Positions 2,486 to 50,225 of a DNA stretch of 64,000 bases are shown piece by piece. The notes beneath the pieces were generated by a model. That model ran no database searches. It was not told where the DNA came from and saw only the letters and a program-made list of their open reading frames with translations. The position numbers and the translations under genes are program-made. The stretch comes from a virus: the IMG/VR virus record IMGVR_UViG_3300032516_000005; one strand, written 5' to 3'. Within the stretch, counting starts at the first letter, position 1. Each line of letters opens with the position of its first letter.

Positions 2486-2501
2486 GATCGCGCACGCAAT
2501 C
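2486..2501. promoter_or_regulatory. GATCGC-N4-GCGATC operator-like palindrome (GATCGCGCACGCAATC)
   Basis: One mismatch to consensus; upstream of TACGTT-N6-ATG of the spike gene. Confidence 0.7.
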
Positions 2502-2545
2502 GACGGACCCGACACGGCTCGACAACACCGCGCGCGTGACGCACG

Positions 2546-3295
2546 ATGCGGTCCGTGCCGCCGAAGCTCTACCATTCGCCGTTGACCGGCGACGTCTGGC
2601 CTGACGTTCGCCCTGCGATCGGGACGCTTGCAGGGCTCGCGAACTTCTTGAACGAGAAGCGGCCGCGACGGCGGCCGCCTGAGGGCCACGACGCAGCGAT
2701 CACGCTCGCGACAGAGGCAGCAGGCGCATTCGCAGGGATCCCGAAGATCACGCGAACCGGCCTCGAAGGTGTTCCGATCGCCGACGCGTACTGGAAGGCG
2801 AAAGAAGCCAAGCGCGTCCTGACTCGGCTCGTCGACGACGGGATCTTCATCAAGCACCAGCAGGAGTGGGGCAGCTCGTGGCTGCGCAGCCATGAAGCTT
2901 GGAGTGTCGACGATCCCTTCTCGCGCGCTCGTAACGTCATGGCGCCGATGCGCGCTGCGCGGCTTGCGTACTACGCCGCGAGCTTGACCGAGAAGGCGGG
3001 TGCAGGGAACGACATCGCCATGGACGCCTACGGCTACGTGCATGCAGCGACGCTGGGGGCGCTCGCAGAGCTGGAGGACGGCGGGGTCGACAAAGTTGCT
3101 GGGGCGGCCGTCGAGCGCGTCTGGCGCTTCGTGGTGGCCGCTGGGAGGCTTCCCAAGAGCCCGGACGATGACGACCTGCTAGCGGCGTTCGAAGCCGCGT
3201 TGATGGTCGGAGAGTCAGAATTTGCTCAGAATTTGGCGAAGTGCGGGTACGGCTTCGTAGACGTACCCCCAGTCGATACAGACACGCCCACGTAG
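2546..3295 (+). CDS. Hypothetical helical protein with C-terminal AFEAA motif
   Basis: 249-aa ORF; AAFEAALMVGESEFAQNL resembles the C-termini of 59243-59839 and 60658-61263. Confidence 0.65.
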   Translation: MRSVPPKLYHSPLTGDVWPDVRPAIGTLAGLANFLNEKRPRRRPPEGHDAAITLATEAAGAFAGIPKITRTGLEGVPIADAYWKAKEAKRVLTRLVDDGIFIKHQQEWGSSWLRSHEAWSVDDPFSRARNVMAPMRAARLAYYAASLTEKAGAGNDIAMDAYGYVHAATLGALAELEDGGVDKVAGAAVERVWRFVVAAGRLPKSPDDDDLLAAFEAALMVGESEFAQNLAKCGYGFVDVPPVDTDTPT

Positions 3296-3714
3296 TTTCA
3301 ACACGTTGGGCGTGCTCTTCGGGTCGGATTTCACGCCCCCTTTTTTGCGCCTGAACGATTCTGAATACTTGTAGTCCGTACTTGTTACGTAGACTACCAA
3401 ATCAGGGGAGGTGATTCCTCTTTCCTATATCTATAGGATCGACGTACTTCGTAAACCCATTTACTCTTATTATGATTTAAGAGAGATCGTAAGTACTAGA
3501 GGAGGAGGAATCACCTCAGGGTGTTTTGGGTAGAAAACTGTAGCAAAATTACTGTGTTACACGAAAGGGGTTGTGAAGGGCGTGAAAGTTCACAACCCCT
3601 CCAATTCGGACGAGATCAGCGGGGACCCGCGTAAGTGGTTGTCAGCTCGTTGCGGGTCCGTTTGAATCCTGTTGACACGCGTGCGCACCGTAAACAAGAA
3701 TTGGGTAGATCCAC
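3296..3714. other. AT-rich intergenic island with nested inverted repeats; candidate replication origin
   Basis: Only long AT-rich non-coding stretch; GAGGTGATTCCTC (3408-3420) / GAGGAATCACCTC (3505-3517); TTTCACGCCC (3329-3338) / GGGCGTGAAA (3578-3587); hairpin 3566-3600. Confidence 0.45.
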
Positions 3715-4482
3715 ATGGTGCAGGCACGCAAGAAACGTGATCGCAAGGTCAAGTCAGATGAATTATTGGATTTGACTGGGCTACCAATTTCGGTCGTTAA
3801 GCACTATCGCGCATGCGCTCAAAAGCTGGACATGAGCGTTACCGAGTACTTGGTACTGAAATTGACCCACGATTGTTACGTTGACGTGGTCGCAGTTGCA
3901 GCTACCAAACGACCTGATGGCAGGGATACTATTTACGCGTCAAAGGCTGAACCGGCAGTTGCGACCACCAAGAGCGGCTACAAAGGCGTCTACGCCTACG
4001 GAAAGCGCTGGGCTGCTGTGGTCTTCGTGAACGGCACACGTCAACGCCTGGGTGTCTGGGACACGCCTGACGAAGCTGCACACGCCTACGACAACCACCT
4101 CATTGCCGCTGCTGACGGCGACCCCAACGTTGCCGTGAATTTTCCGAGTCCACTAGACGACCTGCAAACGGCCGGGGCAGCGTTCGTAGAACGGTTTGCG
4201 ACAGGCGAGCCGCTCACGGACATCGAGCATGCCGCCTGGCAGCGCTCAACGCAGAGCCGCGTGGTTCCTGATCGTGGCGGTTTATCGATTCTTCCTCCGA
4301 CGACAGACGCCAGCAAGATCAACGCGAATATGCCGTTGATGAACCGCCCCGCGATTGGCCTGCACAAGCGCACAGGTTCCCCCGTTGCGCCGAAGCCGCG
4401 AGATCCGACGTTCATCCCTGCGGAGCTGCCTCCACCTATAACCGAGTTCGTGCCGCCGCCATTGGACGACCCCGATGCTTGA
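3715..4482 (+). CDS. AP2-domain DNA-binding protein
   Basis: SGYKGVYAYGKRWAAVVFVNGTRQRLGVWDTPDEAAHAYD...VNFP is the AP2/ERF signature; possible RHH-like N-terminus. Confidence 0.8.
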   Translation: MVQARKKRDRKVKSDELLDLTGLPISVVKHYRACAQKLDMSVTEYLVLKLTHDCYVDVVAVAATKRPDGRDTIYASKAEPAVATTKSGYKGVYAYGKRWAAVVFVNGTRQRLGVWDTPDEAAHAYDNHLIAAADGDPNVAVNFPSPLDDLQTAGAAFVERFATGEPLTDIEHAAWQRSTQSRVVPDRGGLSILPPTTDASKINANMPLMNRPAIGLHKRTGSPVAPKPRDPTFIPAELPPPITEFVPPPLDDPDA

Positions 4483-4487
4483 GCCTA

Positions 4488-4657
4488 TTGCAGTTGACGG
4501 CCTGCACGCCGTTCGATAAGACACTCAATCGGTCCACTGTAGCGAGCCAGGGAATCGAACCCTGCGCGGTCAGCTTGTAACGCTGATCTCATCCCCAGAT
4601 GAGCCGCTCGCTGTAAACCGCGCACGGGTTGCAGTTGACGGCCTGCACGCCGTTCGA
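4488..4657 (+). repeat. 29-bp direct repeat flanking the tRNA
   Basis: TTGCAGTTGACGGCCTGCACGCCGTTCGA at 4488-4516 and 4629-4657. Confidence 0.9.
4540..4612 (-). tRNA. tRNA-Val (anticodon TAC), atypical, CCA not encoded
   Basis: Cloverleaf: AGCGAGC/GCTCGCT acceptor, CTCA/TGAG D-stem, TCAGC-GTTACAA-GCTGA anticodon arm, CAGGG-TTCGATT-CCCTG T-arm, discriminator A. Confidence 0.8.
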
Positions 4658-4789
4658 AACTTGTGTGGCCCCGTCGGTACGGCTAGGGGACCGATCCGAC
4701 GGGGGCTTAGTCGAGCAGAGAGCTACGAGCGCTGGAGCTACAACGCCCGCCGACACTCTACGGGTAACACACCACAGAAAACGCTGTCA

Positions 4790-4841
4790 ACGTCTACGTC
4801 TACGTCTACGTCTACGTCTACGTCTACGTCTACGTCTACGT
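4790..4841. repeat. (ACGTCT)n microsatellite, about 8.5 units
   Basis: Directly visible; on the minus strand it reiterates the TAG stop of 4836-5360. Confidence 0.95.
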
Positions 4842-5360
4842 GCTGCTGCCAGCGTCGTGCGGCACGATCGACGGCTCGTCGACTTGTGCGGCCGTCGAAA
4901 CGTACGCTGCGTGCACTGCTGCAGCTTCAGGCGTCTGCGGACCAAAGTCCGCTGCCGTTGCCGGCATGACGACGCGGTTCTTGTCCCGCTCTTTGCGATA
5001 CTTCTCGTAGCCTGCCGCGATCTGCGCTGTGTAGCGCAGCTCCCCCGGCATTTCACGTACGTGCTGATCGATGCCCGGGATCTTCTCGATCGCGTCTGCA
5101 ATGTCCACTAGGGCCTTGTGCGGCCAGCCCGCTGTTGCCTGCGGATCCAGATTGCCGACCGCGAACTGCACGACCTTGACCGCGGCATGGAATCCGTCGA
5201 GGAGTTGCTTCGTGACCCCTGAGCCGTCAACGTCGACGAGCTTTGCGGCTGTGAGCTGCTTGTCCAGCTCGTAGTTCTTGTTCTGGGCTTCACGAAGCTG
5301 ATCACGCAGCTTGTCGAAGTCAGAGAGCTTGACGGTGACGGTGGGTTCGCTATCGGCCAT
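4836..5360 (-). CDS. Hypothetical protein with N-terminal coiled coil
   Basis: 174-aa ORF directly preceded by a sigma70-like promoter. Confidence 0.75.
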   Translation of the reverse strand: MADSEPTVTVKLSDFDKLRDQLREAQNKNYELDKQLTAAKLVDVDGSGVTKQLLDGFHAAVKVVQFAVGNLDPQATAGWPHKALVDIADAIEKIPGIDQHVREMPGELRYTAQIAAGYEKYRKERDKNRVVMPATAADFGPQTPEAAAVHAAYVSTAAQVDEPSIVPHDAGSST

Positions 5361-5367
5361 GAAACGG

Positions 5368-8019: not shown

Positions 8020-8922
8020 CTAGATGCTGGGTGTTGCCCAGCACAGTGGCGCGAACGTCATCGGCCCGATGATCCCGTCAGCCGTCAGCCCGTGCTTTGT
8101 CTGGAAAGCCTTGACGGCTGCCTCGGTCTTGGGACCGAAAACGCCATCCGGAGTTGTGCCGACACGACGCTGCACCCACGAAACGCGTGCACCATTCGGG
8201 ACGCCGAGCTTCATCAAGTTGAAGCGGTTGCAGTCAACGGTGCGGTTGAACCCGGGCCAGTTGAGTCCGTCACCTTGATACTGGTGGATCCACCAGTTCC
8301 CGCCACCCCACGGGATCGGAACAGTGGGATCGTACGCGCCGCCCGAGAACGGCTTCGAGATGTCACGATGCACAGGCGTACGAACCTGCCACGGCCACGG
8401 CTTTGCGAGCCAGGGGGGCGACGTTGCGAGGTCAGGTGCCATCTGGTTGTGCAGGTCTTCGTTCCAGACGCGGCCGCTGGTGTAGATCATCGGGATCACG
8501 CCGAACGTCGTGCGCATCGCGTTCCAGATCTCGCGATACCAGTCGAGAGCCTGTTCTGCGGTGCAACCGAACGCCGTCGGGCTGCCAGCTGATTCGATGT
8601 CGAGCGCAGGCGGCAAATCCTTGTCGGGGATGAGTCCACCGGCTTTGTCGATCGCGAGCTTGAGTGCTGCGATCTGCGACGCGATCGACACCAGGTCGCC
8701 CTGACCATTCTTGTAGCGCGGGTACAGGTACGGTCCACGCACGAGCCCTGCGGCCTTGATGCCGCTCCAATCTCGAAGGAATGCCGTGTCAACCCAGTTG
8801 CCGTACGCAGCACGTACGATCACGAACGTCAGCCGTGAACCGTCAGCGCTTGGTTGTTTCGCGAGCACCCAGTTCGGTGGGCCGTTGTCATCAATCGACG
8901 CAAAATCGATTCCGAGCAGCAT
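8020..8922 (-). CDS. Endolysin: GH25 muramidase plus C-terminal peptidoglycan-binding domain
   Basis: GIDF, AGLVRGPY, LPPALDIE, PMIYT, WWIHQY, VDCNRF; PGBD VQRRVG..PDGVFGPKTEAAVKAFQ..HGLTADGIIGPMT; start at MLLGIDF with GGAG. Confidence 0.9.
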   Translation of the reverse strand: MLLGIDFASIDDNGPPNWVLAKQPSADGSRLTFVIVRAAYGNWVDTAFLRDWSGIKAAGLVRGPYLYPRYKNGQGDLVSIASQIAALKLAIDKAGGLIPDKDLPPALDIESAGSPTAFGCTAEQALDWYREIWNAMRTTFGVIPMIYTSGRVWNEDLHNQMAPDLATSPPWLAKPWPWQVRTPVHRDISKPFSGGAYDPTVPIPWGGGNWWIHQYQGDGLNWPGFNRTVDCNRFNLMKLGVPNGARVSWVQRRVGTTPDGVFGPKTEAAVKAFQTKHGLTADGIIGPMTFAPLCWATPSI

Positions 8923-8935
8923 TGAGGTCTCCTGG

Positions 8936-9175
8936 TTATGGATCGTCGCTGTCAACCTTGTCGGCGATGTCGACGACGTTGACGAGCGCACGCAGTTCAG
9001 CCTCAACGATGTCCGGTGTTGTCTTGCCGGCGAGACCGTCCTGCAAGGTCACGATGATCGCATGGATTGTCTGGAGGGCGTCTTGCGCCTTGTCTGGCCC
9101 GACTCGTGTGAGCGCTCGAATGGTCTTGAGCGTCCCGAGCGCGATCTCGACAGCCTTGAGGCTATCAGGCAACAT
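8936..9175 (-). CDS. Hypothetical helical protein in the lysis operon
   Basis: MLPDSLKAVE...; coupled to the upstream stop. Confidence 0.55.
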   Translation of the reverse strand: MLPDSLKAVEIALGTLKTIRALTRVGPDKAQDALQTIHAIIVTLQDGLAGKTTPDIVEAELRALVNVVDIADKVDSDDP

Positions 9176-9667: not shown

Positions 9668-9985
9668 TCACTTCGGAGGTTCAGCTGCAGGTGCAGTTGC
9701 GGTTGCGGTTGCAGTTGCCGGTGCGGCTGCCGGTGCGGCTGCCGGCGCGGCTGCCGGCGCGGCTGCCGGTGCAGGTGTAGTCGGCTCCGTGCTGGTGCTG
9801 GTGAACAGCCCGACCGCGCCCGTGATCGTCTTCCCGGTGGCGTAGATGCCGAAGACGTACAGGTTGAACTCCTTCCACGCGTCGATGGTCATGTGACCGA
9901 GCGCGGTGAGAACGGTTGACGCGATCGTGAGCACGAGCGCGAACAGGCCCCGTTCGCTCTTCCAGAGATCCGTGAGTGCACCCAT
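9668..9985 (-). CDS. Holin-like two-TM protein
   Basis: Two hydrophobic segments then a PAAA-repeat tail; first gene of the operon ending in the endolysin. Confidence 0.55.
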   Translation of the reverse strand: MGALTDLWKSERGLFALVLTIASTVLTALGHMTIDAWKEFNLYVFGIYATGKTITGAVGLFTSTSTEPTTPAPAAAPAAAPAAAPAAAPATATATATAPAAEPPK

Positions 9986-10000: not shown

Positions 10001-10016
10001 GATCGCTGCTGAGATC
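10001..10016. promoter_or_regulatory. Operator-like palindrome variant (GATCGCTGCTGAGATC)
   Basis: Adjacent to TAGGGT-N5-ATG of the lysis operon. Confidence 0.6.
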
Positions 10017-10363: not shown

Positions 10364-10849
10364 CTAGTTGCTGCCCTGCGCTTCGGTATCAACGTCGTCT
10401 TCGACGTCGTCTTCGGCGTCATCTTCGGCGTCGTCTTCGGCGTCGTCTTCGGCATCGTCCTCTCCATCATCATCGTCCAGGGCTTCGTCTTCCAGCTCGT
10501 CGTCGTCCTGCTCGTCGTCGTCCTGCTCCTCATCTGCGGTGTCCGCGCGCAGAGGCGCGCCAGCAGGCAAGGTAGGAGGCCGGGGTACGCCGTTCGCGGC
10601 AACCACCCGCAGGTCTGGCTTGGCAGGCTGGGCCGGGGGCTTGGTGCCCGGTTTGGGCCCCGGTTTGATCTCCGGCGTCACAATGTTGAGTTCGCGTGTA
10701 CGTTCCCTGAGGTAATTCGCGCTGATACCTAGGAGGGCAGCCGTTCCACGAACAGACTGGCCGTGTTCGAGTGCGAACTCGATGATGGACCGCTCCGCTT
10801 GGCGTAGCTGGACCCAGTACGGAGCGTCTTCGTCTCGCTTCTTCGGCAT
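10364..10849 (-). CDS. Fis-like HTH protein with long acidic tail
   Basis: AERSIIEFALE..QSVRGTAALLGISANYLRERTREL matches the HTH_8 pattern; C-terminal D/E repeats. Confidence 0.7.
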   Translation of the reverse strand: MPKKRDEDAPYWVQLRQAERSIIEFALEHGQSVRGTAALLGISANYLRERTRELNIVTPEIKPGPKPGTKPPAQPAKPDLRVVAANGVPRPPTLPAGAPLRADTADEEQDDDEQDDDELEDEALDDDDGEDDAEDDAEDDAEDDAEDDVEDDVDTEAQGSN

Positions 10850-11214
10850 TACATACCCCCCGCGGGTGGATCTACAGGCAGCATGGACGCGGTGACCCCG
10901 GGGTCATTGCTCCCAAGGTTCTGCAGTGCGCGGACGTGGAAATCACCCAGAATGGGCGTCCAGACGATAGATCCGAGCCCAACAACGATGGGCGTGACCC
11001 AAAACCGTCCGGATAGACCCAGAAACGGCAGGTCCTGGGTCCAACCGATCGCAAGAGCGACTGCAACCCCGTAAGCGAAGCCGCTACACGCTGCGCAAAG
11101 TGTATAGCGATCCAACCAATCGGGATACCGCGACCACAATGATTTCGTGATCATAGCCCGCGCGAACAGGTAGAACGCAGCCACGGTCAGCAGGGGATAG
11201 AGCAAGATCGTCAT
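10849..11214 (-). CDS. Membrane protein with CxxC (DUF1360-like)
   Basis: Three hydrophobic segments; TLCAACSGF. Confidence 0.55.
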   Translation of the reverse strand: MTILLYPLLTVAAFYLFARAMITKSLWSRYPDWLDRYTLCAACSGFAYGVAVALAIGWTQDLPFLGLSGRFWVTPIVVGLGSIVWTPILGDFHVRALQNLGSNDPGVTASMLPVDPPAGGM

Positions 11215-11228: not shown

Positions 11229-11687
11229 CTAGACCTTCTCAGCGCGATCGTCCGCGATCTCGTGCAGCTCATCGCCCAGCTTGTCATCGTGTCCACTGGT
11301 TGCGATCGAATGTCCGACCACGCCGACCCAGCGATTACACAGGTATTCGGAATGGCAGAAATCACCCTCGGGACCGCCATCGGCTTTGGGCCGTGGACCC
11401 TTCATACAAAGGCCGGCAACGCCCGTGGCGATCATGCGGTCCATCTTGTGAAGGTCCTGAAGCCGCGCGTCCTGCATCTCGGCGGGGCTCCAGTTTGGGT
11501 TCTCCATGTCAGCGAGCCGTGCGATCGGCGCCGTTCCGAGGTAGTCGGTGATACGTGCCGCGCGATGGATGTTCCATTGCGCGTGCGAGGTGTCCCCGGT
11601 GTTGAACGCGGTGCAGTTACCGCAACGACGGGCACGCGTGAAGGTCCGCTCGGGCGCGCTGATCTGACTCATCTTGTGGTCGTACAC
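11229..11687 (-). CDS. Cys-rich hypothetical protein
   Basis: RCGNCTAF...GLC...CNRW; start may be 11672. Confidence 0.65.
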   Translation of the reverse strand: MYDHKMSQISAPERTFTRARRCGNCTAFNTGDTSHAQWNIHRAARITDYLGTAPIARLADMENPNWSPAEMQDARLQDLHKMDRMIATGVAGLCMKGPRPKADGGPEGDFCHSEYLCNRWVGVVGHSIATSGHDDKLGDELHEIADDRAEKV

Positions 11688-11705: not shown

Positions 11706-11817
11706 AATCGCGGATGCGACTGAACCCGCGTTGACAACGTCGAATCACGCCCTTAGAGTGGCCCACGGTTCACCAGAGCAGTCACATCCGCGATCGAACT
11801 TGATCGCGTGAGCGATC
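11706..11817 (+). promoter_or_regulatory. Sigma70-like promoter with three operator-like sites
   Basis: TTGACA(11731)-N17-TAGAGT; GATCGCGTGAGCGATC at 11802-11817; variants at 11706-11721 and 11780-11795. Confidence 0.75.
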
Positions 11818-11835: not shown

Positions 11836-14331
11836 ATGGCCGCGCAGAAGGAAAAAGAGCAGCGCTTCGATCAGGGTAAGTTGCAGGGAATGCATGAGCC
11901 CCTGACCGTTCGAGTCGAAAAGATGCGCGGCAACGTGCGTCAACCGATCGAGCTGCCTTCCAAGGGAAGCGAACAGAACGGCTTCTCGCCACCCGGTTCG
12001 AACTGGACGCGTGACGAAGTGCTCGGGCTCGAAAACTTCATCCTCACGAAGTGGTCTGGCGGCGGCTACTACGAGTTCACGGTGACCGATGCAAAGGCCG
12101 ATCGCATGACCTGGCAGGGCGTATGGGACCCGCGGCTCTACCCCGAGCGCATCCCGCCCAACACTGCAGAGGCCGCTGTCGTGGGCGCTGCGCAGACCAC
12201 CACCCCGATCGCAGGGCCACAGCCCATGCCACCTGGTGTGCAGCCGTTCGGGAGTTCCATGCAGAACAACTGGCCACCGTCCGGTAACCAGCTCGGTTAC
12301 AACAACCCGCCGCATTCTGGTCCCGTGATGGGCATGATGCCGCAGGGGCAACCGCAACAGCAGCAGCCCAGCTATGCGCCACAGCCCGGCTATGCGCCAC
12401 AGCAGGCACCGATGCCGCAGGCACCGCAGGCACCGCCGATGTGGAACCCGCAGGCTCAATGGCAGGCCGGCTACGGGGCACAGCCCGGCTACGGGTCACA
12501 CCCCGGCTACGGGCCGTCCTATGGTGGGCGTTCACGGTTCATCGATGATGATCCACGCGAATCGCGCCGGACACGTGCCTTCGAGCGTGATCATCATGAT
12601 GACGACAAGGAGAAGCGTGAGCTGCGTGAGCGCGAGTTGGAGCAAAAGCTCCGGCAAGCCGAGCTGAGTTCCAAGGAGATGGAGTACAAGGCAACGCTCG
12701 ATCGGATCCAGCAGCAGCAGTCCACGCAGATTCAGCAGATGCAGCAGCAGCACGCCACGCAGATGCAGACGCTACAGGAAGAACTGCGCCGTATCGGTGA
12801 AGCCCGCAATAAGGGCGAGGATGACGAAGTTCGGCGTATGCGGGAGGAGTCTCAAAAGCACCGCGAGCACGCGCAGGCCGAAGTGCAACGTCTGCGTGAG
12901 CAGGCGCAGGCCGAGCAAGCCCTCCTGCAGCGCCAGCTGCAAGAGCAGCAGATCATGCAGATGCGGCAGGCTAGCGAGGCTCAGGTCGCAGCTATTCGTG
13001 AGCAGCTCTCACGGATGGCCGAAGCGCCGCGTGGCGAGAACGACGAGGTCCGTCAGCTACGCATGGAGCAGGAGCGTCAGCGTCAAGACACGGAGCGTGT
13101 CCGGCAGGAGACCGAGCGGCGCCTCGAAGCTGAGCGGCTCGATCGCGAGCGCGAGCGTGAGCGCTACGAGCGGGAACGGCGTGACGAGGTCTTCCAGCGC
13201 GAACTGCGTTCGCAAGAAGAGGCGCGGGCACGTCGCGACGAGATGATGCAACGTGACATGAAGGAGCAGCGCGAAGCGACCGAACGACGCATCGAACAGC
13301 TCGCGCAGAACAACCGCGCGAACGATCCGATGATCGATGCGATGAAGGAAAACGCACGTCTCAACGCCGAGCAAATGCGTGAGATCGCGCGGATGCAGAC
13401 CGATTCCACGAACCGGATGTCGCAGTTCATGGTCGCACCGATGCAGCTCGCGCAGATCATGAAGGAGAACTCGTCCGGTTCGGACGGGTTGATGCGGAAC
13501 GTCGTCGACTCCGTTAGCGGCATCGTGGGCATGTACAAGAACGCCGCCGAGACGATCATGCAGATGAGCGGTGGTGGGGGCGACCCGCCCGCGGCACGGC
13601 TGATTCAGGAAGGCATCGGACGGGCGAGTGAGGTCGCCGAGAAGTTCCTGGCCGTCAAGCGCGACCAGGTGATCTCGGAATCGAAGGTCAAGCAAGCTGA
13701 AGCAATGCGCGACCAGACGAAGATTCAGGCCGACGCGCATCTGCGTGCGACCCAGATGCAGACGCAAGCAGCCATGGCAACTGGCCGGCAGTGGAGCCCG
13801 CCACCGCCTGTCGCGAGCAGCAACAGCAACAGTGGGCTAGGTGGCGTGCAAGCGCACCCGAGCGCGAATGGGCAGCACCAGCAGGCCGCGCAGGCCACGC
13901 AGACTGCACAGGCCCCAGCTGCGAAGCCGAAACGGACCGGCATGATCGACGATCAGGTGCCCGATCCCGCGCAACCAAAACGGACCGGCATGATCGACGA
14001 TCAGGTGCCTGATCCTGCCCCGCCTCCGAACAGCACGGGGCCGAGCGAAGAGGAGGTCTTCGGTGTCGCGCTGGAGAGCGTTCTCCGGCTTCGACGCGGC
14101 GTGGCTGAAAACAAGTTGACACCCGACAAGGTGATCGACGCGATCCTGCAGGGTGTCGAGCACGTCGTGACGAACAACATCGTCATCCCCGCGTTCGTCC
14201 TGTTTCAACAGGAACGCTGGGCTGACTTCATCGACGTCATGCTACCCGAGGCGCCCCAGGACTTCCGTGCCGAGTGTGTGCGCATCATGATCGAAGAGGT
14301 CGAGGTCACCCCAGAAGGCGAATCTTCGTAG
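11836..14331 (+). CDS. Large Gln/Pro-rich coiled-coil protein (putative assembly/scaffold factor)
   Basis: 831 aa, GAGGGAG RBS, globular ends, long E/R/Q coiled coil, duplicated PKRTGMIDDQVPDPA. Confidence 0.8.
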   Translation: MAAQKEKEQRFDQGKLQGMHEPLTVRVEKMRGNVRQPIELPSKGSEQNGFSPPGSNWTRDEVLGLENFILTKWSGGGYYEFTVTDAKADRMTWQGVWDPRLYPERIPPNTAEAAVVGAAQTTTPIAGPQPMPPGVQPFGSSMQNNWPPSGNQLGYNNPPHSGPVMGMMPQGQPQQQQPSYAPQPGYAPQQAPMPQAPQAPPMWNPQAQWQAGYGAQPGYGSHPGYGPSYGGRSRFIDDDPRESRRTRAFERDHHDDDKEKRELRERELEQKLRQAELSSKEMEYKATLDRIQQQQSTQIQQMQQQHATQMQTLQEELRRIGEARNKGEDDEVRRMREESQKHREHAQAEVQRLREQAQAEQALLQRQLQEQQIMQMRQASEAQVAAIREQLSRMAEAPRGENDEVRQLRMEQERQRQDTERVRQETERRLEAERLDRERERERYERERRDEVFQRELRSQEEARARRDEMMQRDMKEQREATERRIEQLAQNNRANDPMIDAMKENARLNAEQMREIARMQTDSTNRMSQFMVAPMQLAQIMKENSSGSDGLMRNVVDSVSGIVGMYKNAAETIMQMSGGGGDPPAARLIQEGIGRASEVAEKFLAVKRDQVISESKVKQAEAMRDQTKIQADAHLRATQMQTQAAMATGRQWSPPPPVASSNSNSGLGGVQAHPSANGQHQQAAQATQTAQAPAAKPKRTGMIDDQVPDPAQPKRTGMIDDQVPDPAPPPNSTGPSEEEVFGVALESVLRLRRGVAENKLTPDKVIDAILQGVEHVVTNNIVIPAFVLFQQERWADFIDVMLPEAPQDFRAECVRIMIEEVEVTPEGESS

Positions 14332-14356: not shown

Positions 14357-14372
14357 GATCGCGCGCGCGATC
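14357..14372. promoter_or_regulatory. Operator-like palindrome GATCGCGCGCGCGATC
   Basis: Perfect palindrome just before TACGTT-N6-GTG. Confidence 0.8.
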
Positions 14373-16245: not shown

Positions 16246-16261
16246 GATCGCGTGCGCGATC
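16246..16261. promoter_or_regulatory. Operator-like palindrome GATCGCGTGCGCGATC
   Basis: Next to a minus-strand TAGAGT -10 box. Confidence 0.8.
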
Positions 16262-18956: not shown

Positions 18957-19013
18957 GATCGCGTGCGCGATCGGAACCCCTTCAAGCTACGCGGAGTGAC
19001 CCTACGCTGTCAA
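18957..19013 (-). promoter_or_regulatory. Promoter TTGACA-N18-TAGCTT with downstream operator
   Basis: -35 at 19008-19013, -10 at 18984-18989, GATCGCGTGCGCGATC at 18957-18972; same layout as 21804-21860. Confidence 0.85.
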
Positions 19014-21803: not shown

Positions 21804-21860
21804 GATCGCGTGCGCGATCTCGACGCTTTCAAGCTACCTGTCGCATGCGTGCGTTGTCAA
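21804..21860 (-). promoter_or_regulatory. Promoter TTGACA-N18-TAGCTT with downstream operator
   Basis: -35 at 21855-21860, -10 at 21831-21836, GATCGCGTGCGCGATC at 21804-21819; divergent with the protease gene. Confidence 0.85.
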
Positions 21861-25209: not shown

Positions 25210-25302
25210 GATCGCTGTTGGGACTGTCGTCTACGTGCCAGTAGTAACCATGTGAAATTGCTAGTGAATCAACTTGATCGCGGGCGCGATCGCCAGTAGG
25301 TT
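25210..25302 (+). promoter_or_regulatory. Two operator-like sites and -10 box of the capsid operon
   Basis: GATCGCTGTTGGGACT at 25210-25225, GATCGCGGGCGCGATC at 25276-25291, TAGGTT-N7-ATG. Confidence 0.75.
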
Positions 25303-33938: not shown

Positions 33939-33954
33939 GATCTTGCAAGCGATC
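33939..33954. promoter_or_regulatory. Operator-like variant GATCTTGCAAGCGATC
   Basis: Upstream of TATCCT-N6-GTG. Confidence 0.55.
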
Positions 33955-35027: not shown

Positions 35028-35043
35028 AGTCCCAACAGCGATC
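35028..35043. promoter_or_regulatory. Operator-like variant, exact reverse complement of 25210-25225
   Basis: AGTCCCAACAGCGATC just after TAGAGT, upstream of the small capsid gene. Confidence 0.65.
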
Positions 35044-37924: not shown

Positions 37925-37940
37925 GATCGCTTGCGCGATC
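37925..37940. promoter_or_regulatory. Operator-like palindrome GATCGCTTGCGCGATC
   Basis: In a divergent promoter region; TAGCAT-N6-ATG follows. Confidence 0.8.
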
Positions 37941-40318: not shown

Positions 40319-40342
40319 CGCGGGGCTTGCCATCCTACTCTG

Positions 40343-40402
40343 GATCACGGGCGCGATCGAGGTATCTGCGGAATTTACCCGTAGACGATCGCGCGCGCGA
40401 TC
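40343..40402. promoter_or_regulatory. Two operator-like palindromes in a divergent promoter
   Basis: GATCACGGGCGCGATC at 40343-40358; GATCGCGCGCGCGATC at 40387-40402. Confidence 0.8.
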
Positions 40403-42507: not shown

Positions 42508-42523
42508 GATCGCATCCGCGATC
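42508..42523. promoter_or_regulatory. Operator-like palindrome GATCGCATCCGCGATC
   Basis: Followed by TGG-TAGGCT-N5-ATG. Confidence 0.8.
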
Positions 42524-42544: not shown

Positions 42545-43477
42545 ATGCTCGTAAGCAGCTATGTCAACGGCTTCGGCGCTGCCAGCTTCGGTCAGGCGCG
42601 ATCATTGTTCGAGGTCGCTGCCATCGCGGTGCAGCGTGCACAAAGTCCGGGGGGCGGCTTCGGCAACGCCTTCGGCCTGGCAACGAGCTTCGAGGCCTTC
42701 ACAGCTGCTTCTGCTGCACGGCGTCCTGAGACCTTCGTGTCCTCCGGGGTGTTCTGTCGCGTACCAGATGTCCGTGGCCTGTTCAGCATCGAGTGTTTCG
42801 CGAACGCGAAGCGTGGCCCCGCTGATGATCCCGCCAAGGCGTTGCAACGGGCCACCGACCTGCTCATGAATCAGATCCCGCTGTTCGAAGATACGCGCAC
42901 GGCGCAACAGCGTGGGGAGCCGATCAAAGTCAAGCTGCCGGACGGGTCGACCGAAGCTGTCCGCATCCCGGCGTTCCCTATGAACCCGGTGCTCTCGATT
43001 GGTGGCGGGTATGACGGACTCATCGGCGGTGGCACGATGCAGTTTGCTGCACCCGCGATGCTTCTGGCCGGCGCGTTGTCGGCGCCACCTCCCAGTGTCG
43101 TGCCCGCGTTCGCGTCGCCGACAGCGTTCACGTTCACGCGAGACGCGGGTGCAATCGCAGGCTACTTCACCCAGGTTGCGAACAACTTCGGACGTCTCTT
43201 GGCCGAGATGAAGGCGCGTGGCAACACACCTGCCGTGACACCGCTCGTTCCCGAGACCGTGATCGTTCGTCCCGACAGTGTCGAAGTGAAAAAGCGCTCC
43301 CTCGCGCCTATCATCGGAGCCGCTGCTGCGATGATCGGTCTCACTGCAATCGGCGCCGTCGCAGCCGCGAAACACAAGCCTGCGATGGCCTACGAAGACG
43401 ACCTCCCGAGCCCTGCATTCGGTCGCCGTCGCCACCACAGCCGTGGGCACCACGGACTGCGGCCGCGAGGCTGGTGA
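42545..43477 (+). CDS. Tail-anchored putative virion protein (divergent family B)
   Basis: MLV..NGFGA, GGFG, ALQRA...YDGLIGGGT, TM, AFGRRR. Confidence 0.75.
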   Translation: MLVSSYVNGFGAASFGQARSLFEVAAIAVQRAQSPGGGFGNAFGLATSFEAFTAASAARRPETFVSSGVFCRVPDVRGLFSIECFANAKRGPADDPAKALQRATDLLMNQIPLFEDTRTAQQRGEPIKVKLPDGSTEAVRIPAFPMNPVLSIGGGYDGLIGGGTMQFAAPAMLLAGALSAPPPSVVPAFASPTAFTFTRDAGAIAGYFTQVANNFGRLLAEMKARGNTPAVTPLVPETVIVRPDSVEVKKRSLAPIIGAAAAMIGLTAIGAVAAAKHKPAMAYEDDLPSPAFGRRRHHSRGHHGLRPRGW

Positions 43478-43974: not shown

Positions 43975-44214
43975 GTGAGCACACGAACCAAGCGTCCGAC
44001 GCGGTCGCGCCAAGCTTCCAGTCGCGCCAGCGATCGCATTTCGCACCTGCACGTCGTCGTTGATGACGAGCTGCGTACCAAGCTGGAAGCGTACGCACGC
44101 AAACGTGACGGCAAGCCCCCGTCCAAGCACTACGACCGGAAGCCAAACCTCTCGGCGGCTGTTCGTGATCTGCTCCGATCGTCGCTGGGTCTGCCCGCCG
44201 CTGAAGCTGCGTAG
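43975..44214 (+). CDS. Ribbon-helix-helix DNA-binding protein
   Basis: LHVVVDDELRTKLEAYA...NLSAAVRDLL; TATAAT-N7-GTG. Confidence 0.75.
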   Translation: MSTRTKRPTRSRQASSRASDRISHLHVVVDDELRTKLEAYARKRDGKPPSKHYDRKPNLSAAVRDLLRSSLGLPAAEAA

Positions 44215-44216: not shown

Positions 44217-44232
44217 GATCGCGGACACGATC
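44217..44232. promoter_or_regulatory. Operator-like variant GATCGCGGACACGATC
   Basis: Followed by TACCGT-N6-ATG. Confidence 0.75.
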
Positions 44233-44253: not shown

Positions 44254-44730
44254 ATGCTGCAACGGCGCATGCCCTACATCCCCAACGGCAAGTCCAAGGG
44301 ACGCCGCCCGAGCGACTTCGATCCCAGTCAACTGACGGTCGGGACCGAGGTCGAGATGGAACACACAACCAATCGCCGTGTCGCACAGCGCATCGCGATG
44401 GATCACCTAACCGAGGACCGCAGCTACTACAAGAAGCTCGCGAAGATCCACCTCGATGGCCGTCAACGCCGTGGACACAACTTCGGTGACGCTGCCTGCT
44501 CACACACTTCGCGCGTGGTTCGCGGTGGTGTGGGTGCCCTGATCGGCGGCGTCATCGGCGGCATGATCGGCGGCGGCGTGGCATTGGCCGTCACGACGTC
44601 GCAGTTCGAGGTCGCGCACCCGATCGAGACTGTAAAACGCGCCAAGACCATGGGGTTGGTTGCAATGGGCATCGCGGTCCTCGGCGCCGTTGGTGGCCTC
44701 ATGGCGGGTTCTGCAAAGCCGGAGTGCTGA
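44254..44730 (+). CDS. DUF5661-like domain fused to a Gly-zipper hairpin ending PEC
   Basis: QL..G.EVEMEHT....A.RIAMDHL.ED..YY.KL; NFGD; two TMs; KPEC. Confidence 0.75.
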   Translation: MLQRRMPYIPNGKSKGRRPSDFDPSQLTVGTEVEMEHTTNRRVAQRIAMDHLTEDRSYYKKLAKIHLDGRQRRGHNFGDAACSHTSRVVRGGVGALIGGVIGGMIGGGVALAVTTSQFEVAHPIETVKRAKTMGLVAMGIAVLGAVGGLMAGSAKPEC

Positions 44731-46663: not shown

Positions 46664-46665
46664 GA

Positions 46666-47112
46666 CTAGTAGCCCCCGCCGTCCGCGCACTCGGGACCGA
46701 GACCGCGCGCGATGCTCTCGGGCACCGTCAGCGCGAGCCCGCAGCGCCCGCACTTGCCCTCGTGCCAGACCTCGCACCCAGGCGGCAGCTCGCCCTTCGC
46801 GATGAACGACCAGGCCCACGCAAAGCCCTTGGCCGACGAAGCCTCGGACGTGACAGTCGATTTGCGGCCGTGGCGGTAGGTGACGCCGTCCTCGAAGATC
46901 GTCCCGAGGAACGTGTAGTCGTCGTTGTTGTTGCGGCCCGTCAGGACCGACACGAACCACGGCGGCGTCGGAGCCTCGCCCTTCGCGACCTTTTTAGCCT
47001 TGATGCGGAACGTGAACCGCGTGCCCGTCTTGACGCTGACCAGGGTCAGGCGCGCCTTGCCGGCGAGCGCGAAGGTCCGAGCAGCGGTTCCGGTAGCGAT
47101 CTGGGTGGTCAT
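46666..47112 (-). CDS. DUF6011-like Zn-finger protein
   Basis: HEGKCGRCGLALTVPESIARGLGPECA; CAGGAG RBS. Confidence 0.8.
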   Translation of the reverse strand: MTTQIATGTAARTFALAGKARLTLVSVKTGTRFTFRIKAKKVAKGEAPTPPWFVSVLTGRNNNDDYTFLGTIFEDGVTYRHGRKSTVTSEASSAKGFAWAWSFIAKGELPPGCEVWHEGKCGRCGLALTVPESIARGLGPECADGGGY

Positions 47113-47135: not shown

Positions 47136-47176
47136 GACGTCGGGGCGGGACGCCCATTCAAACAAAGCGAGAGTTA
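47136..47176 (-). promoter_or_regulatory. Conserved ECF-like promoter, copy 1
   Basis: TAACTCTCGCTTTGTTTGAAT-N16-CGTC. Confidence 0.7.
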
Positions 47177-47181: not shown

Positions 47182-48117
47182 TCAGGCCTTGCGGGGGAAC
47201 GCCTGGGGCGTCCAAGTGTCGATTTTCTCAGTCAAATCGGCAATGTGTCGGGTCAGGGACGTGATGTGCCCTTCCAGCGTCAGGCGCTGGGACGCGATCT
47301 CCTGCTTGAACTCGCGCGATCCCTTCAGCGCCGTCGCGTACTCGGGCACGTACTGCCCGTGCCGCAGCCCCGGGCGCGTCTCGTACGTGCCTCGGCCGGT
47401 CTGGTACTGGACCTTGGTGAGCGTCGCGAGGCCCGCCAGCTGGCCCTGGCGCAGCTTCAGCGAGCTTTGGACGATGCCCCGGTACATCTTGGTCCCCTCG
47501 CACGAGACCTCGTAGGGCGCGTAGCCAACGCCGTAGCAGTCCCCGTGGATCATGCCGTCGCCGGGTCGCTCGTAGCCGTGGTGAACCATCTTGGCCCCAG
47601 TGGTCTTGTCGGCAATGTAGTCGCCGAAGCAGCACGGGCAGATCCCGCAACGCTGGCCACGATCCTCGAAGTCCTTCGCGACCTTCGCGACCTTCGCGCG
47701 GGTCTTCGCACCCTCGCGCGCGAGCTTGGCGATCACTTCGATCGCCTTGCGGACGGTGCGAACGAAGCGGTAGCCCTCGCTGGTCTGGTCGAAGCGCAGC
47801 GTGTGCCACGAGCCGTCGGCGTAGCGCGCGACGTAACGCGCCTTGGTCTCGGGGTCGAGCGCGCAGGTCTGCGAGTCGAAGCCGTCGGGCTTGACGTCGT
47901 CGATCTTCTGCACGAGCAACTCGTCGCGGTAGAGGCCGCGCACGACGTACTCCTGGTGCTTTTTGAAGTTGCCGCCGTAGCCGCCCTTCGAGTGCACGAT
48001 GAACGGCGGGCACGCGGTGTAGCGCGTCGCGCGCTTGTCCATGACCGTCGTCGTCGCCGGCACGGCGTGGTACGCGCGCGGCCAGGTCTCGGGGGTCTCG
48101 ATGTAGTAGGTGGTCAT
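47182..48117 (-). CDS. Hypothetical protein with Zn-binding motif
   Basis: GICPCC...MVHHGYERPG.G..HGDC.G...PYE. Confidence 0.75.
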   Translation of the reverse strand: MTTYYIETPETWPRAYHAVPATTTVMDKRATRYTACPPFIVHSKGGYGGNFKKHQEYVVRGLYRDELLVQKIDDVKPDGFDSQTCALDPETKARYVARYADGSWHTLRFDQTSEGYRFVRTVRKAIEVIAKLAREGAKTRAKVAKVAKDFEDRGQRCGICPCCFGDYIADKTTGAKMVHHGYERPGDGMIHGDCYGVGYAPYEVSCEGTKMYRGIVQSSLKLRQGQLAGLATLTKVQYQTGRGTYETRPGLRHGQYVPEYATALKGSREFKQEIASQRLTLEGHITSLTRHIADLTEKIDTWTPQAFPRKA

Positions 48118-48125: not shown

Positions 48126-48166
48126 GACGGGTGCTTAGGGCAGGTATTCAAACAAAGCGAGAGTTA
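48126..48166 (-). promoter_or_regulatory. Conserved ECF-like promoter, copy 2
   Basis: TAACTCTCGCTTTGTTTGAAT-N16-CGTC. Confidence 0.7.
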
Positions 48167-49294: not shown

Positions 49295-49296
49295 GA

Positions 49297-49572
49297 CTAG
49301 ACCTTTCCCGTCGGCCTGATCATCGCGTTGATGTCTGCCGCAGCGTCTGCCGCAGCAACAATCGCGACATGTTCGGCGCTGGCACGAGCAGCGCTGGCAT
49401 GGGCGCGCACGGCGCGAGCCGCCAGCGCTTCGTGCGCCTTGATCACTGCAGCCAAGTGCGCTGCGCTTGTCTCGACTTGACGATCCAGTTCCCTGGCGTA
49501 CCCCACGGCGCTCTCGGCCGCGACGCGTGCGGCAAGCTGGGTTCGTTCAGTCTTGGTGAGACGACGCGACAT
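49297..49572 (-). CDS. Ala-rich coiled-coil protein
   Basis: AAGGAG RBS. Confidence 0.65.
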   Translation of the reverse strand: MSRRLTKTERTQLAARVAAESAVGYARELDRQVETSAAHLAAVIKAHEALAARAVRAHASAARASAEHVAIVAAADAAADINAMIRPTGKV

Positions 49573-49627
49573 GATTCACTCCTTAGCGAGAGCTTGTTGT
49601 CAGTAACAGTCGGGTTCCGCCTGTAAA

Positions 49628-49669
49628 GACGCCCGGTGACCGTCCTGTATTCAAACAAGTCGAGAGTAA
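49628..49669 (-). promoter_or_regulatory. Conserved ECF-like promoter, copy 3
   Basis: TTACTCTCGACTTGTTTGAAT-N17-CGTC. Confidence 0.65.
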
Positions 49670-49765
49670 GTGCACAATCTCGTAAGTATCTGTTTTCAGG
49701 CCCAAAAACAGGGCAGATCCCGCCTACTTGCGCGCAGAAGACCGGACGCCAGGCACGGGATCACT

Positions 49766-49903
49766 CCTGGGAATCGGCCTGGGAATCGGCCTGGGAATCG
49801 GCCTGGGAATCGGCCTGGGAATCGGCCTGGGAATCGGCCTGGGAATCGGCCTGGGAATCGGCCTGGGAATCGGCCTGGGAATCGGCCTGGGAATCGGCCT
49901 GGG
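49766..49903. repeat. Perfect 12-bp tandem array (CCTGGGAATCGG) x 11.5
   Basis: Directly visible, no spacers, intergenic. Confidence 0.95.
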
Positions 49904-49907
49904 TCAG

Positions 49908-50162
49908 CTAGACCCGCGCCGCGGTCGCGGCGCTTTGGCTCACACGACGGGCGCGCCGTGCCGACAACCTGTCGGGACGGATCACGTGGCAGCCGTAGTA
50001 ACGCTCCAGTGCACGGATCTCGCGCTCGGTCATGTCACGCAGCGTTCGAAGCTTCGTGGCTTCGCGTAGCGCTGCAAACTCGTCGACGGTGCGCGCACGC
50101 GTCGCGGTAGCGCCCTTGTTGTAGCCCCAGGTCGGTCCCTCGGCAGTTTTCTTGTGCGCCAT
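49908..50162 (-). CDS. Small basic hypothetical protein
   Basis: 84-aa ORF divergent from 50233. Confidence 0.5.
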   Translation of the reverse strand: MAHKKTAEGPTWGYNKGATATRARTVDEFAALREATKLRTLRDMTEREIRALERYYGCHVIRPDRLSARRARRVSQSAATAARV

Positions 50163-50186
50163 CGTATGCGGGGGACGCTAACCCGC

Positions 50187-50225
50187 GATCGCTCCTGTGA
50201 TCAAGTAGCGGTTTGGGTGTAGAAT
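50187..50225 (+). promoter_or_regulatory. Operator-like variant plus -10 box
   Basis: GATCGCTCCTGTGATC at 50187-50202; TAGAAT-N7-ATG. Confidence 0.65.

Follow-up and report, generated by a model that had tools for sequence, protein, structure and literature searches.

A recurrent 16-bp palindrome at scattered promoters of virion-type and lysis genes in a viral genome: a candidate operator for a symmetric regulator

Genes and palindrome copies in the window

The window, by which we mean the whole 64-kb stretch of DNA analyzed here from a large uncultured bacterial virus, encodes apparent membrane or virion proteins, a GH25 endolysin, a thioredoxin, a ribbon-helix-helix (RHH) protein and several further putative regulators. 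As a sequence-only reading of this DNA had proposed, one palindrome with the consensus cGATCGC-[G/T]CG[C/A]-GCGATCg links many short transcription units on both strands. All 20 positions listed in that reading are confirmed and carry exact copies, copies with one or two mismatches, or copies of the GACT variant (Table 1); the copies at 11047, ~27464, 44020, 54220 and 63267 are additional. The palindrome is absent from blocks at 3.3-7.8, 45-49.7 and 54.3-63 kb, in agreement with the earlier statement that none was seen before early gene blocks. Promoters of other types serve these blocks, where the tRNA, integrase, LuxR and DUF6011/DUF6283 genes are located.

Table 1. Palindrome copies, associated promoters and the RHH gene in the window
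Position	Strand	Feature	Placement	Gene content and relatives
2486..2501		1 mismatch	class A for 1198-2469(-): 1-nt gap, TGATACGTT, 6 nt, ATG	ortholog keeps site in G008 and G013
10001..10016		1 mismatch	class A for 9668-9985(-)	unit runs on to GH25 endolysin gene 8020-8955(-)
11047		variant		
11706..11721		looser copy of AGTCnC-N4-GCGATC variant	promoter region of 11229-11687(-)	operon also holds weak Fis-type HTH gene 10364-10849
11731..11817	+	class B promoter	TTGACA-N17-TAGAGT, two sites, SD, ATG of 11836-14331 (831 aa)	
11780-11795, 11802-11817		AGTCnC-N4-GCGATC variant and exact copy, in tandem	6 nt apart, behind TTGACA-N17-TAGAGT	pair shared with L003 and L004; G013 keeps one site
14357..14372		exact	class A for 14389-14802(+): 1-nt gap, TGTTACGTT, 6 nt, GTG	G008 ortholog: extended -10 only
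16246..16261		exact	class A for 15758-16225(-): 2-nt gap, TGATAGAGT, 9 nt, ATG	layout repeated in L003, L004, L008
18957..19013	-	class B promoter	TTGACA-N18-TAGCTT, 11 nt, exact palindrome 18957-18972, SD, ATG of 17838-18929(-)	G008 ortholog: promoter kept, only a GATCGC half-site, fused to SD
21804..21860	-	class B promoter	TTGACA-N18-TAGCTT, 11 nt, exact palindrome 21804-21819, SD, ATG of 20992-21789(-)	661-aa gene 19010-20995 follows; conserved in L001-L004 and L012
25210..25225		AGTCnC-N4-GCGATC variant, as GATCGC-TGTT-GGGACT	upstream of small HTH_17 gene 24917-25159(-)	
25276..25291		exact	5 nt upstream of TAGGTT, 7 nt, ATG of 25310-26194(+)	heads block with conserved all-beta proteins 26496-27389 and 27565-28314
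~27464		wider-spaced, GATCGC-N6-GCGATC		
33939..33954		2 mismatches	14 nt upstream of TAGTAT; 9 nt on, GTG of 33133-33909(-)	
35028..35043		AGTCnC-N4-GCGATC variant	1 nt downstream of TAGAGT, leader of 35082-35618(+)	
37925..37940		exact	13 nt upstream of TGCTAGCAT; ATG at 37969	
40343..40402		divergent region, two sites	40343 (1 mismatch) over thioredoxin gene promoter (40004-40348, -); exact site 40387 adjoins TTGACC -35 of gene with ATG 40450 (+)	
42508..42523		exact	class A for 42545-43477(+): 7-nt gap, TGGTAGGCT, 5 nt, ATG	G008 ortholog: TGATAGGCT, no palindrome
43975..44214	+	79-aa RHH protein, candidate binder	leaderless GTG 7 nt after TATAAT	
44020..44035		variant	within RHH codons 16-21	kept at same codons in three genomes although N4 changes
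44217..44232		1 mismatch	2 nt past RHH stop codon; class A for DUF5661 gene 44254-44730(+)	order RHH stop-palindrome-DUF5661 conserved in G001 and G002
50187..50202		1 mismatch	17 nt upstream of TAGAAT, 7 nt, ATG of 50233-50910(+)	
54220..54235		exact, non-coding	gap between convergent genes; 29 nt downstream of TGATAGTTT, minus strand	target uncertain, may be 78-aa ORF 53907-54143(-)
63267..63282		exact	inside gene 63144-63890(-); no promoter context	probably chance or neutral

Exact matches to GATCGC-N4-GCGATC number 11 in the 64-kb window, compared to 0.02 expected from shuffles, and when up to two mismatches are allowed the count is 59 compared to 10.8. The spacing is specific to N8, as GATC-N8-GATC occurs 37 times versus 0-13 times at all other spacings from 0 to 20. 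The asymmetric variant AGTCnC-N4-GCGATC recurs (5 matches, 0.10 expected). Ten of the 11 exact copies are non-coding, nine or ten of these being at promoters; with non-coding DNA taken as at most 20% of the window, based on rough gene calls with three over-extended starts corrected, our own arithmetic gives a binomial P of ~9e-7. One-mismatch copies inside genes also exceed their codon-shuffle null (8 versus 1.24 expected), and several in-gene near-matches fall in Ile-Ala-rich membrane-helix codons or internal repeats. Nevertheless, palindrome density in non-coding DNA is roughly 40 times that in genes, and the intergenic enrichment for which the sequence-only reading had suggested a check therefore holds.

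Promoter layouts

Most copies fall into two layouts. In class A, the palindrome usually lies 1-3 nt, and in some cases 5-18 nt, upstream of an extended -10 element, and the start codon follows 3-9 nt past this element, indicating a leaderless mRNA; over all sites the gaps range from 1 to 20 nt. In class B, the promoter is complete (TTGACA-N17/18-TAnnnT) and the palindrome lies behind it, spanning roughly +5 to +21. The copies are thus placed between about -32 and -17, immediately before or beside the -35 position, or in this downstream interval, which agrees with the earlier description of sites either where a -35 box would be or downstream of full TTGACA promoters. Promoter proximity is likewise borne out in the window and in a complete relative, G001: an extended -10 and a start codon come just after 17 of its 36 exact copies, compared to 0.4% of random positions.

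The palindrome could be envisioned to act as a nucleic-acid hairpin, by stabilizing the 5' leader, by serving as a processing site, or by separating units as an insulator or U-less terminator. Its two arms form a 6-bp stem around a 4-nt loop (-7.6 kcal/mol), the class B copies belong to the transcribed leader, and several class A copies occur a few nucleotides past the stop codon of the upstream gene (e.g., 42508 and 44217). However, the transcripts of class A units begin only after the palindrome, no T-run follows it, and the asymmetric GACT variant is selected as such. Moreover, in degenerate promoter copies a stem pair is broken by a single change and no compensation occurs, so it is the letters that are conserved and not the pairing, and we regard a hairpin function as highly improbable. 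Because, in addition, the central 4 nt are variable and have no fixed orientation with respect to transcription, we infer that the palindrome is recognized as a duplex by a symmetric protein.

Conservation among relatives

The palindrome is found in three IMG/VR records (36, 44 and 20 copies, versus 0 for a reversed control) and is retained at orthologous promoters even though the proteins share only 43-54% identity. The replication genes of G001 lie in its site-poor part. G003 and G005 contain the same word and layout although they lack the 249-aa and 661-aa marker proteins; G003 shares ~35 genes with G001 and thus is a distant relative, not an independent virus. G008, G010 and L005/L006 have the same extended -10 leaderless promoters without the upstream motif, which indicates that the core promoters do not need the palindrome. 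At one orthologous gene, the site is found at +5 to +21 in the window's clade but is absent behind the same core promoter in G008, while L009 has a related palindrome, GTCGC-N4-GCGAC, directly upstream of the -35 box. As other relatives keep palindrome-free core promoters, the palindrome seems to be an operator added onto them, and a repressor would be the simplest regulator to act through it.

The sequence-only reading had described the upstream copies as activator-like, and their position is indeed as it stated. A factor bound at about -25 could replace the -35 contact and turn class A promoters on late, similar to P1 Lpa or to sigma adaptation by mycobacterial PafBC, and in a dual version the same factor would turn class B genes off in the manner of phi29 p4. 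Class A copies are stereotyped in their gap to the extended -10, and class A promoters lack a -35 box. Window promoters that have no palindrome often contain TTGACA, which fits a role of the palindrome as a -35 substitute. Most class A sites are centered near -25, a position at which activators of the Lpa and PafBC types act; the palindrome of the P1 Lpa-dependent late promoters is centered near -22. In these systems, one element in the -22 to -26 zone, combined with a -10 but no -35, is common to many scattered late or regulon promoters. Lpa-dependent late promoters are known in P1 (PMC8198154), PafBC promoters consist of a -10 and a -26 element (PMC8635444), and AvtR is an RHH protein that both activates and represses (PMC5569661). 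However, Lpa and PafBC elements activate, and the PafBC element is asymmetric (PMC8635444), while the palindrome is also found at +5 to +21 and next to -35 boxes; an activator alone could not use all of these positions and gaps of 1-20 nt.

Extended -10 promoters generally work without a -35, and relatives use such leaderless promoters, orthologous ones included, free of the palindrome; the window has at least one of this type, at 193(-). The products of class B genes, apparently membrane or virion proteins, also resemble those of class A genes. The activator part of the earlier description is thereby weakened, and we consider an activator or dual regulator unlikely, although the least so of the alternatives discussed here.

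Candidate binding proteins

Five binders were named in the sequence-only reading, and among these the RHH protein (43975-44214) is the most likely one encoded in the window, judging from sequence comparisons. Homologs occur in G001, G002, G003, G005 and G008, and the protein co-occurs with sites in four of five site-bearing lineages; the LuxR, HTH_17 and Fis-like candidates were not found in G003. The beta-strand and helix B vary hardly or not at all among homologs (59-95% identity). The window protein itself is not recognized by Pfam, but it aligns to the G003 homolog with 95.5% probability in hhalign, and that homolog has sub-threshold Pfam matches to FitA-like and CopG RHH families. The structure model is of low confidence (pLDDT 64) and the protein has an 11-residue insert between its helices. 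In addition to the sites within and just behind the RHH gene of the window, a near-palindrome lies upstream of the gene in G003 and G005. G008, which has the RHH protein, keeps about two promoter sites.

The proposal fares less well in G013 (98% complete), where promoters carry looser sites, at least 12 in all, and where no homolog of the RHH protein or of any other window candidate regulator is detectable. A different binder may be used in G013, or else the RHH protein is not the binder. As the window comprises 64 kb of a 167-kb genome, the binder may also be encoded elsewhere or by the host. In the latter case, a host transcription factor would be exploited by several viruses of one host group and no viral binder would be needed, possibly explaining both the looser sites of G013 and the shared word and layout in G003/G005 without the marker proteins. 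Phages typically carry one to three sites for a host factor, far fewer than the 36-44 copies per record found here, and the relatedness of G003 to G001 and the co-occurrence of RHH genes with sites also argue against a host factor, which we view as improbable.

Comparison with known systems

One of the closest parallels is the immunity repressor of mycobacteriophage L5 and Cluster A, with its operators and stoperators (PMC9283540, PMC6550527). There, one repressor uses more than 20 short sites genome-wide, in promoters and short intergenic gaps, silencing host-type promoters and blocking read-through. However, a two-domain monomer recognizes the 13-bp sites of L5, which are asymmetric and depend on orientation, whereas the palindrome is 16-18 bp, perfect and without orientation bias, and occurs only in virion-type and lysis units at fixed distances from the -10.

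P22 Arc/Mnt, SIRV1 SvtR and AFV6 AvtR are small RHH proteins whose dimers cooperatively bind adjacent sub-sites, and which repress their own genes and hold structural genes off (PMC5569661). The candidate RHH protein, with a site in or beside its own gene, is similar in this respect, but it has the insert between its helices and its binding is putative; SvtR has 4 sites and AvtR ~8 (PMC5569661), compared to 36-44 per genome here.

Dam-sensitive operators built around GATC include those of pap/Lrp, agn43/OxyR and IS10. The palindrome is likewise GATC-built, and the virus group (G001) encodes a D12 (Dam-type) methyltransferase; however, GATC is ubiquitous (622 copies) and the enzyme is also kept by relatives with no or almost no palindrome. 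For these reasons, gating of binding by GATC methylation is as speculative as when it was first suggested.

Proposed mode of control

We propose that the palindrome is the operator of one sequence-specific, two-fold symmetric and probably virus-encoded regulator, for which the RHH protein is the likeliest binder, and that this regulator represses by occlusion or roadblock; we judge this proposal, which is drawn from sequence, to have about an even chance of being correct. The virion-type and lysis genes would be transcribed from many short host-type promoters, either extended -10 with leaderless starts or full TTGACA/TAnnnT, each with one or two operators within the region covered by RNA polymerase. 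Binding of the RHH protein would involve a dimer of dimers, with one dimer per cGATCg sub-site and centers 12 bp apart. Blocking of RNA polymerase by occlusion or roadblock would be the simplest single mechanism fitting all positions, and because class B sites lie behind consensus promoters of three different genes, only negative control appears sensible there.

The "late" or structural role of the target genes, as the earlier reading labeled them, is only partly shown: it draws on a single GH25 endolysin, encoded in the unit behind the 10001 site, on one very conserved all-beta protein with only weak leads to PRD1-type capsid families, and on the location of replication genes in the site-poor part of G001. 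If the proposal is correct, the bound regulator would keep these genes silent early in infection or, given the presence of a tyrosine recombinase, in a carrier or lysogenic state.

A promoter-associated palindrome

The exact palindrome GATCGC-N4-GCGATC occurs 11 times in the 64-kb window, versus 0.02 expected from dinucleotide shuffles, and copies with up to two mismatches number 59, versus 10.8 expected. The spacing is specific, since GATC-N8-GATC occurs 37 times while any other spacing from 0 to 20 occurs 0–13 times. An asymmetric form, AGTCnC-N4-GCGATC (the GACT variant), is also enriched (5 vs. 0.10 in the window), and four relatives have 2–6 copies each. Across the window and its relatives, 38 distinct exact sites combine to the consensus cGATCGC-[G/T]CG[C/A]-GCGATCg. 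All positions listed in the sequence-only reading were recovered as exact, one- or two-mismatch, or GACT-variant copies, and further exact and variant copies were added to them (see table).

Equal density inside genes, which that reading had named as evidence against a regulatory site, was not found: on a rough, self-trained gene map with obvious over-extended starts corrected from upstream regions, 10 of the 11 exact copies are non-coding, within at most 20% of the window (binomial P ~9e-7, our own arithmetic), and only the copy at 63267 clearly lies within a gene. Intragenic one-mismatch copies do exceed a codon-shuffle null (8 vs. 1.24); several are in Ile-Ala-rich membrane-helix codons or internal repeats. 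As expected of an operator, the word is over-represented and concentrated in non-coding DNA inside the RNA polymerase footprint of promoters.

Other related words were observed. Two near-identical GATCAGGTGCC[C/T]GATC words, 48 nt apart within the gene for an 831-aa protein (11836–14331), reflect a protein-internal repeat (PKRTGMIDDQVPDPA twice). A GACT-variant site within gene 10849–11214 has identical letters in the ortholog, which may reflect coding constraint or a site within the gene. The gap between the genes of two conserved all-beta proteins contains GATCGC-N6-GCGATC, and the equivalent gap in relatives contains an inverted GACT-variant pair, 13 nt apart, as well as hairpins; this gap may be an attenuator or processing site.

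Promoter layouts

The two placements described from the sequence alone, upstream of -10 and downstream of full TTGACA promoters, are both seen and are here called classes A and B. The class A palindrome spans about -32 to -17, and copies with 1–3 nt gaps are centered at about -24.5 to -26.5. Because the start codon closely follows the -10 box, class A mRNAs would be leaderless or nearly so. The palindrome is present at 7 of the approximately nine non-coding promoters in the window that combine an extended -10 with a start codon; in the related IMG/VR record G001, 17 of 36 copies have class A context, versus 0.4% of random positions.

The reported absence of the site before other gene blocks also holds, with no palindrome at the head of the blocks at 3.3–7.8 kb, 45–49.7 kb, and 54.3–63 kb. 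These blocks hold a tRNA, DUF6011 and DUF6283 proteins, a tyrosine recombinase, and a LuxR-type protein, and their promoters have a TTGACA or CTCTCGCTTTG box. The CTCTCGCTTTG-box promoters are a second promoter class, without the palindrome. The tyrosine recombinase (Phage_integrase family) is conserved in the relatives G001, G008, G013, and G010; it may function in integration or dimer resolution, which is relevant to whether the virus can be temperate. Elsewhere, the leaders before the genes at 26496 and 27565 have a common CGACAACCAG followed by a Shine-Dalgarno sequence (SD), and the leader before 30175 bears only a loose resemblance to them (TTTCACG...CAGGAGA), which hints at a signal for translation or stability that the most conserved genes have in common.

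Table. Coordinates of palindrome copies and other features in the window and in related records
Position (strand)	Feature	Details
2486, 10001, 14357, 16246, 42508, 44217	Class A examples	Palindrome, 1–3 nt gap (less often 5–18), extended -10 TGnTAnnnT, 3–9 nt, ATG/GTG
18957, 21804	Class B examples	Full TTGACA-N17/18-TAnnnT, 10–11 nt, palindrome at ~+5 to +21, SD, ATG
11731–11817	Class B, third case	Promoter, 22 nt, variant and exact site 6 nt apart
40387	Other placement	Adjoins TTGACC -35
37925, 50187	Other placement	13–17 nt upstream of -10
11780, 25210, 35028	GACT-variant members	Window
54220, 63267	Exact copies	Added to the earlier list
44020, 11047	Variant copies	Added to the earlier list
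11047–11062 (-)	Intragenic GACT-variant site	Ortholog: L004:15305–15320
13951–13966, 13999–14014	GATCAGGTGCC[C/T]GATC words	
27390–27564	Gap between all-beta protein genes	Relatives: L003:825–869
47163–47173, 48153–48163 (-)	Identical CTCTCGCTTTG box, then GTTTGAAT	Upstream of 46666–47112 and 47182–48117
26460–26495, 27530–27564	Leaders with CGACAACCAG	
30140–30174	Loosely similar leader	
4539–4612 (-)	tRNA-Val	Anticodon TAC; palindrome-free block
56019–56903 (-)	Tyrosine recombinase	
43975–44214 (+)	Putative ribbon-helix-helix (RHH) protein	79 aa
58830–59249 (-)	LuxR/GerE-type HTH protein	
33953–34960 (-), 28365–29228 (+), 24303–24920 (-)	Mobile-type nuclease genes	
L119:951–1982 (-)	D12 (Dam-type) adenine methyltransferase	G001
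L119:5083–8844 (-)	Family-A DNA polymerase	G001
L096, record positions 93561–94993	CRISPR-like array	G008 (IMGVR_UViG_3300036768_000843), contig end

Conservation in related viruses

The 661-aa protein encoded at 19010–20995 has metagenomic homologs, and at their loci the identical exact palindrome occurs at orthologous promoters, with proteins only 43–54% identical. As expected of an operator, it is the letters and not the base pairing that are kept at orthologous promoters across diverged relatives.

Whole records were found by scanning IMG/VR with the class A DNA pattern, and exact copies were then counted. There are 36 in G001 (221 kb), 44 in G002 (196 kb), 20 in G004 (91 kb), 7 in G003 (150 kb), 8 in G005 (147 kb), and 7–11 in the fragments G014–G016 (36–79 kb), and a reversed control pattern has 0 copies in every record. 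Six further records (G006, G007, G008, G009, G010, and G011), all with a very conserved 249-aa protein (27565–28314 in the window), contain 0 or 1 exact copy. G013 contains three exact and at least 9 one-mismatch copies of a looser GATCG-N6-CGATCc, mostly at promoters. G003 and G005 repeat the arrangement of palindrome, extended -10, and leaderless start, and in one instance a single palindrome serves two divergent promoters. They lack the 249-aa and 661-aa markers; with ~35 genes in common with G001, they count as distantly related rather than as an independent virus.

No match was obtained in an IMG/VR scan with the 661-aa protein, in DNA searches of phage databases, or in either of two genome-contig scans, the last giving no host or prophage lead. 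In G008, 18 copies of CCGATC-N7-GATCGG gave the appearance of co-variation; these belong to a CRISPR-like array and are not operators. The array has at least 18 repeats of ~37 nt (core CCGATCAGCCGACGATCGG) with spacers of 23–37 nt, some of them duplicated. It may be virus-borne or a junction with host DNA, and is a possible host lead.

A proposed operator for repression or activation

The compensatory stem changes and T-run that would mark a terminator or structured RNA are absent: in degenerate promoter copies a stem pair is broken with no compensating change, and the sequence after the palindrome has no T-run. Class A copies, moreover, lie upstream of their own transcript. Conservation of letters rather than pairing, the lack of a T-run, and the class A position together argue for recognition of duplex DNA and against a hairpin or terminator. 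Restriction-site and terminator readings were rejected on account of the promoter-locked positions and the missing T-run. As the site is symmetric and its center has no orientation bias, its binder is most likely a dimer or tetramer.

Several observations bear on the sign of control. Class B copies are located just past the start site of consensus promoters at three different genes. In orthologous genes, the site is found at +5 to +21 or is missing with the core promoter unchanged. For example, the 363-aa gene (17838–18929 (-) in the window) keeps TTGACA-N18-TAGCTT in G008, with the palindrome reduced to a GATCGC half-site fused to the SD, and the G008 counterparts of genes 42545, 14389, and 21789 have the extended -10 only. 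Leaderless promoters of this extended -10 type also serve the palindrome-free relatives G010, G008, and L005/L006, where they have no upstream motif in common, and in locus L009 a related palindrome, GTCGC-N4-GCGAC, is directly upstream of -35. The class B positions, the variation among orthologs, and the promoters of palindrome-free relatives favor an add-on negative operator, and on these comparisons we give repression through the palindrome about an even chance.

Activation or dual control is considered less likely than repression. In its favor, activators of the Lpa and PafBC types act at the main class A position, and a -35 box is frequent among the window's palindrome-free promoters. Class A promoters fit the pattern of the P1 Lpa-dependent late promoters (PMC8198154) and the PafBC promoters (PMC8635444), with an element at a fixed place near -22 to -26 and a -10 but no -35; the resemblance is confined to the class A position. 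Rather than being restricted to one position, as an activator site would be, copies also occur between +5 and +21, beside the -35, and with 5–20 nt gaps, and the orthologous promoters in G008 are without the element.

Candidate binding proteins

The putative RHH protein is the best placed of the binders proposed in the sequence-only reading. Its gene, missed by the gene finder, begins at a leaderless GTG 7 nt past TATAAT. Homologs are 59–95% identical and show little or no variation in the beta-strand (ISHLHVV) and in helix B (PNLSAAVRDLLR). They are found in the window, G001 and G002 (56%), G003, G005, and G008, and are absent from the site-free G006, G007, G009, G010, and G011 as well as from G013, which has the looser sites. 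The window protein has no Pfam match, and its structure model places two helices where expected, at low confidence (pLDDT 64). Its hhalign comparison with the G003 homolog gives a probability of 95.5%, the main difference being an 11-residue insert between helices, and the G003 homolog has sub-threshold matches to the Pfam FitA-like RHH and CopG RHH (RHH_1) models.

In the window, G001, and G002, a palindrome occurs 1–2 nt past the RHH stop codon, after which comes the class A promoter that serves a DUF5661 gene. The RHH gene also has a variant site at the same codons, its N4 changing, and in G003 and G005 a near-palindrome is upstream of the gene. The half-site cGATCg is itself a small palindrome and would suit one RHH dimer per half, with centers 12 bp apart. 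There are two exceptions to the link between RHH and site: G008 has RHH but only about two promoter sites, which is consistent with a shrunken regulon, and G013 has sites but no detectable RHH. We tentatively propose RHH as the binder, at somewhat below even probability; the remaining probability goes to another virus protein or a host factor.

LuxR is rejected, as it is absent from G003, G005, G008, and G013, and so is HTH_17, which is absent from G003, G005, and G013 and has a recognition helix that varies among genomes with an identical palindrome. The Fis-like protein (10364–10849), absent from G003 and G013, fares worse than RHH. A phyletic profile (presence in site-bearing genomes but not G010) returned a MoxR ATPase, a DUF2201 protein, a glycosyltransferase, and three unknowns, with no evident DNA binder among them; BLAST is too weak for small regulators. 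The LuxR/GerE-type protein, conserved at 65–71% and only in G001 and G002, has an N-terminal half rich in Cys and His that is possibly a metal or redox sensor.

GATC methylation

GATC is abundant across the window (622 copies), with two per palindrome, and G001 encodes a D12 adenine methyltransferase. Beside this gene is a family-A DNA polymerase with a UDG domain and an intein with a LAGLIDADG endonuclease. The methyltransferase is kept in G010 and G008, which have no or almost no palindrome. Gating of palindrome binding by methylation, as earlier suggested, is possible but speculative.

In a more specific and rather improbable scheme, an RHH tetramer would read two GATC 12 bp apart at ~40 promoters, forming a late switch timed by replication or methylation. 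Its occupancy would depend on how much repressor there is relative to replicating genome copies, or on the virus Dam (fully, hemi-, or unmethylated GATC). If so, host-type promoters of virion genes would fire only post-replication, without a viral polymerase, sigma factor, or activator. A link to cyanobacterial HIP1 was rejected, as GCGATCGC is no more frequent than its sub-words predict (21 vs. 20.4).

Target genes

A GH25 endolysin that has a peptidoglycan-binding domain is encoded in the unit headed by the 10001 site. Most remaining targets encode novel proteins that contain membrane anchors and low-complexity linkers, and searches of PHROGs and Pfam left most target genes without a name. 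The 249-aa protein is 91–93% identical across relatives; its model is all beta-strand at low confidence (pLDDT 34), and Atlas gives weak leads to PRD1 capsid (P2/P3) families. In G001, a site-poor region contains the family-A DNA polymerase, an SNF2 helicase, AAA_24, and the Dam-type methyltransferase. The label of late or structural for palindrome-led genes is plausible. Within the presumed virion-gene block there are also three mobile-type nuclease genes: a double-motif LAGLIDADG endonuclease, an HNH endonuclease, and a T5orf172/MUG113 domain fused to HTH_17.

Relation to known systems and significance

The palindrome system resembles a dispersed-operator regulon, comparable to the L5 stoperators (PMC9283540, PMC6550527) and the viral RHH repressors SvtR and AvtR (PMC5569661). 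L5-type stoperators, however, are asymmetric 13-bp sites with an orientation that follows transcription; because the palindrome is symmetric and orientation-free, this system is not of the L5 type. Full-text literature searches with half-site words returned only unrelated cyanobacterial HIP1 papers.

For an uncultured virus group with very few recognizable genes, one putative operator word offers a way to mark the virion and lysis regulon by sequence alone. It can be used in every relative and predicts leaderless starts that gene callers miss, such as that of the uncalled RHH gene, and it leads to a candidate regulator and operator short enough to be tested as a pair. If the repressor reading is correct, morphogenesis in a large virus would be timed through direct control of dozens of host-type promoters, each self-sufficient, with no late activator, and operators gained or lost promoter by promoter among relatives would provide a natural series for regulon growth.
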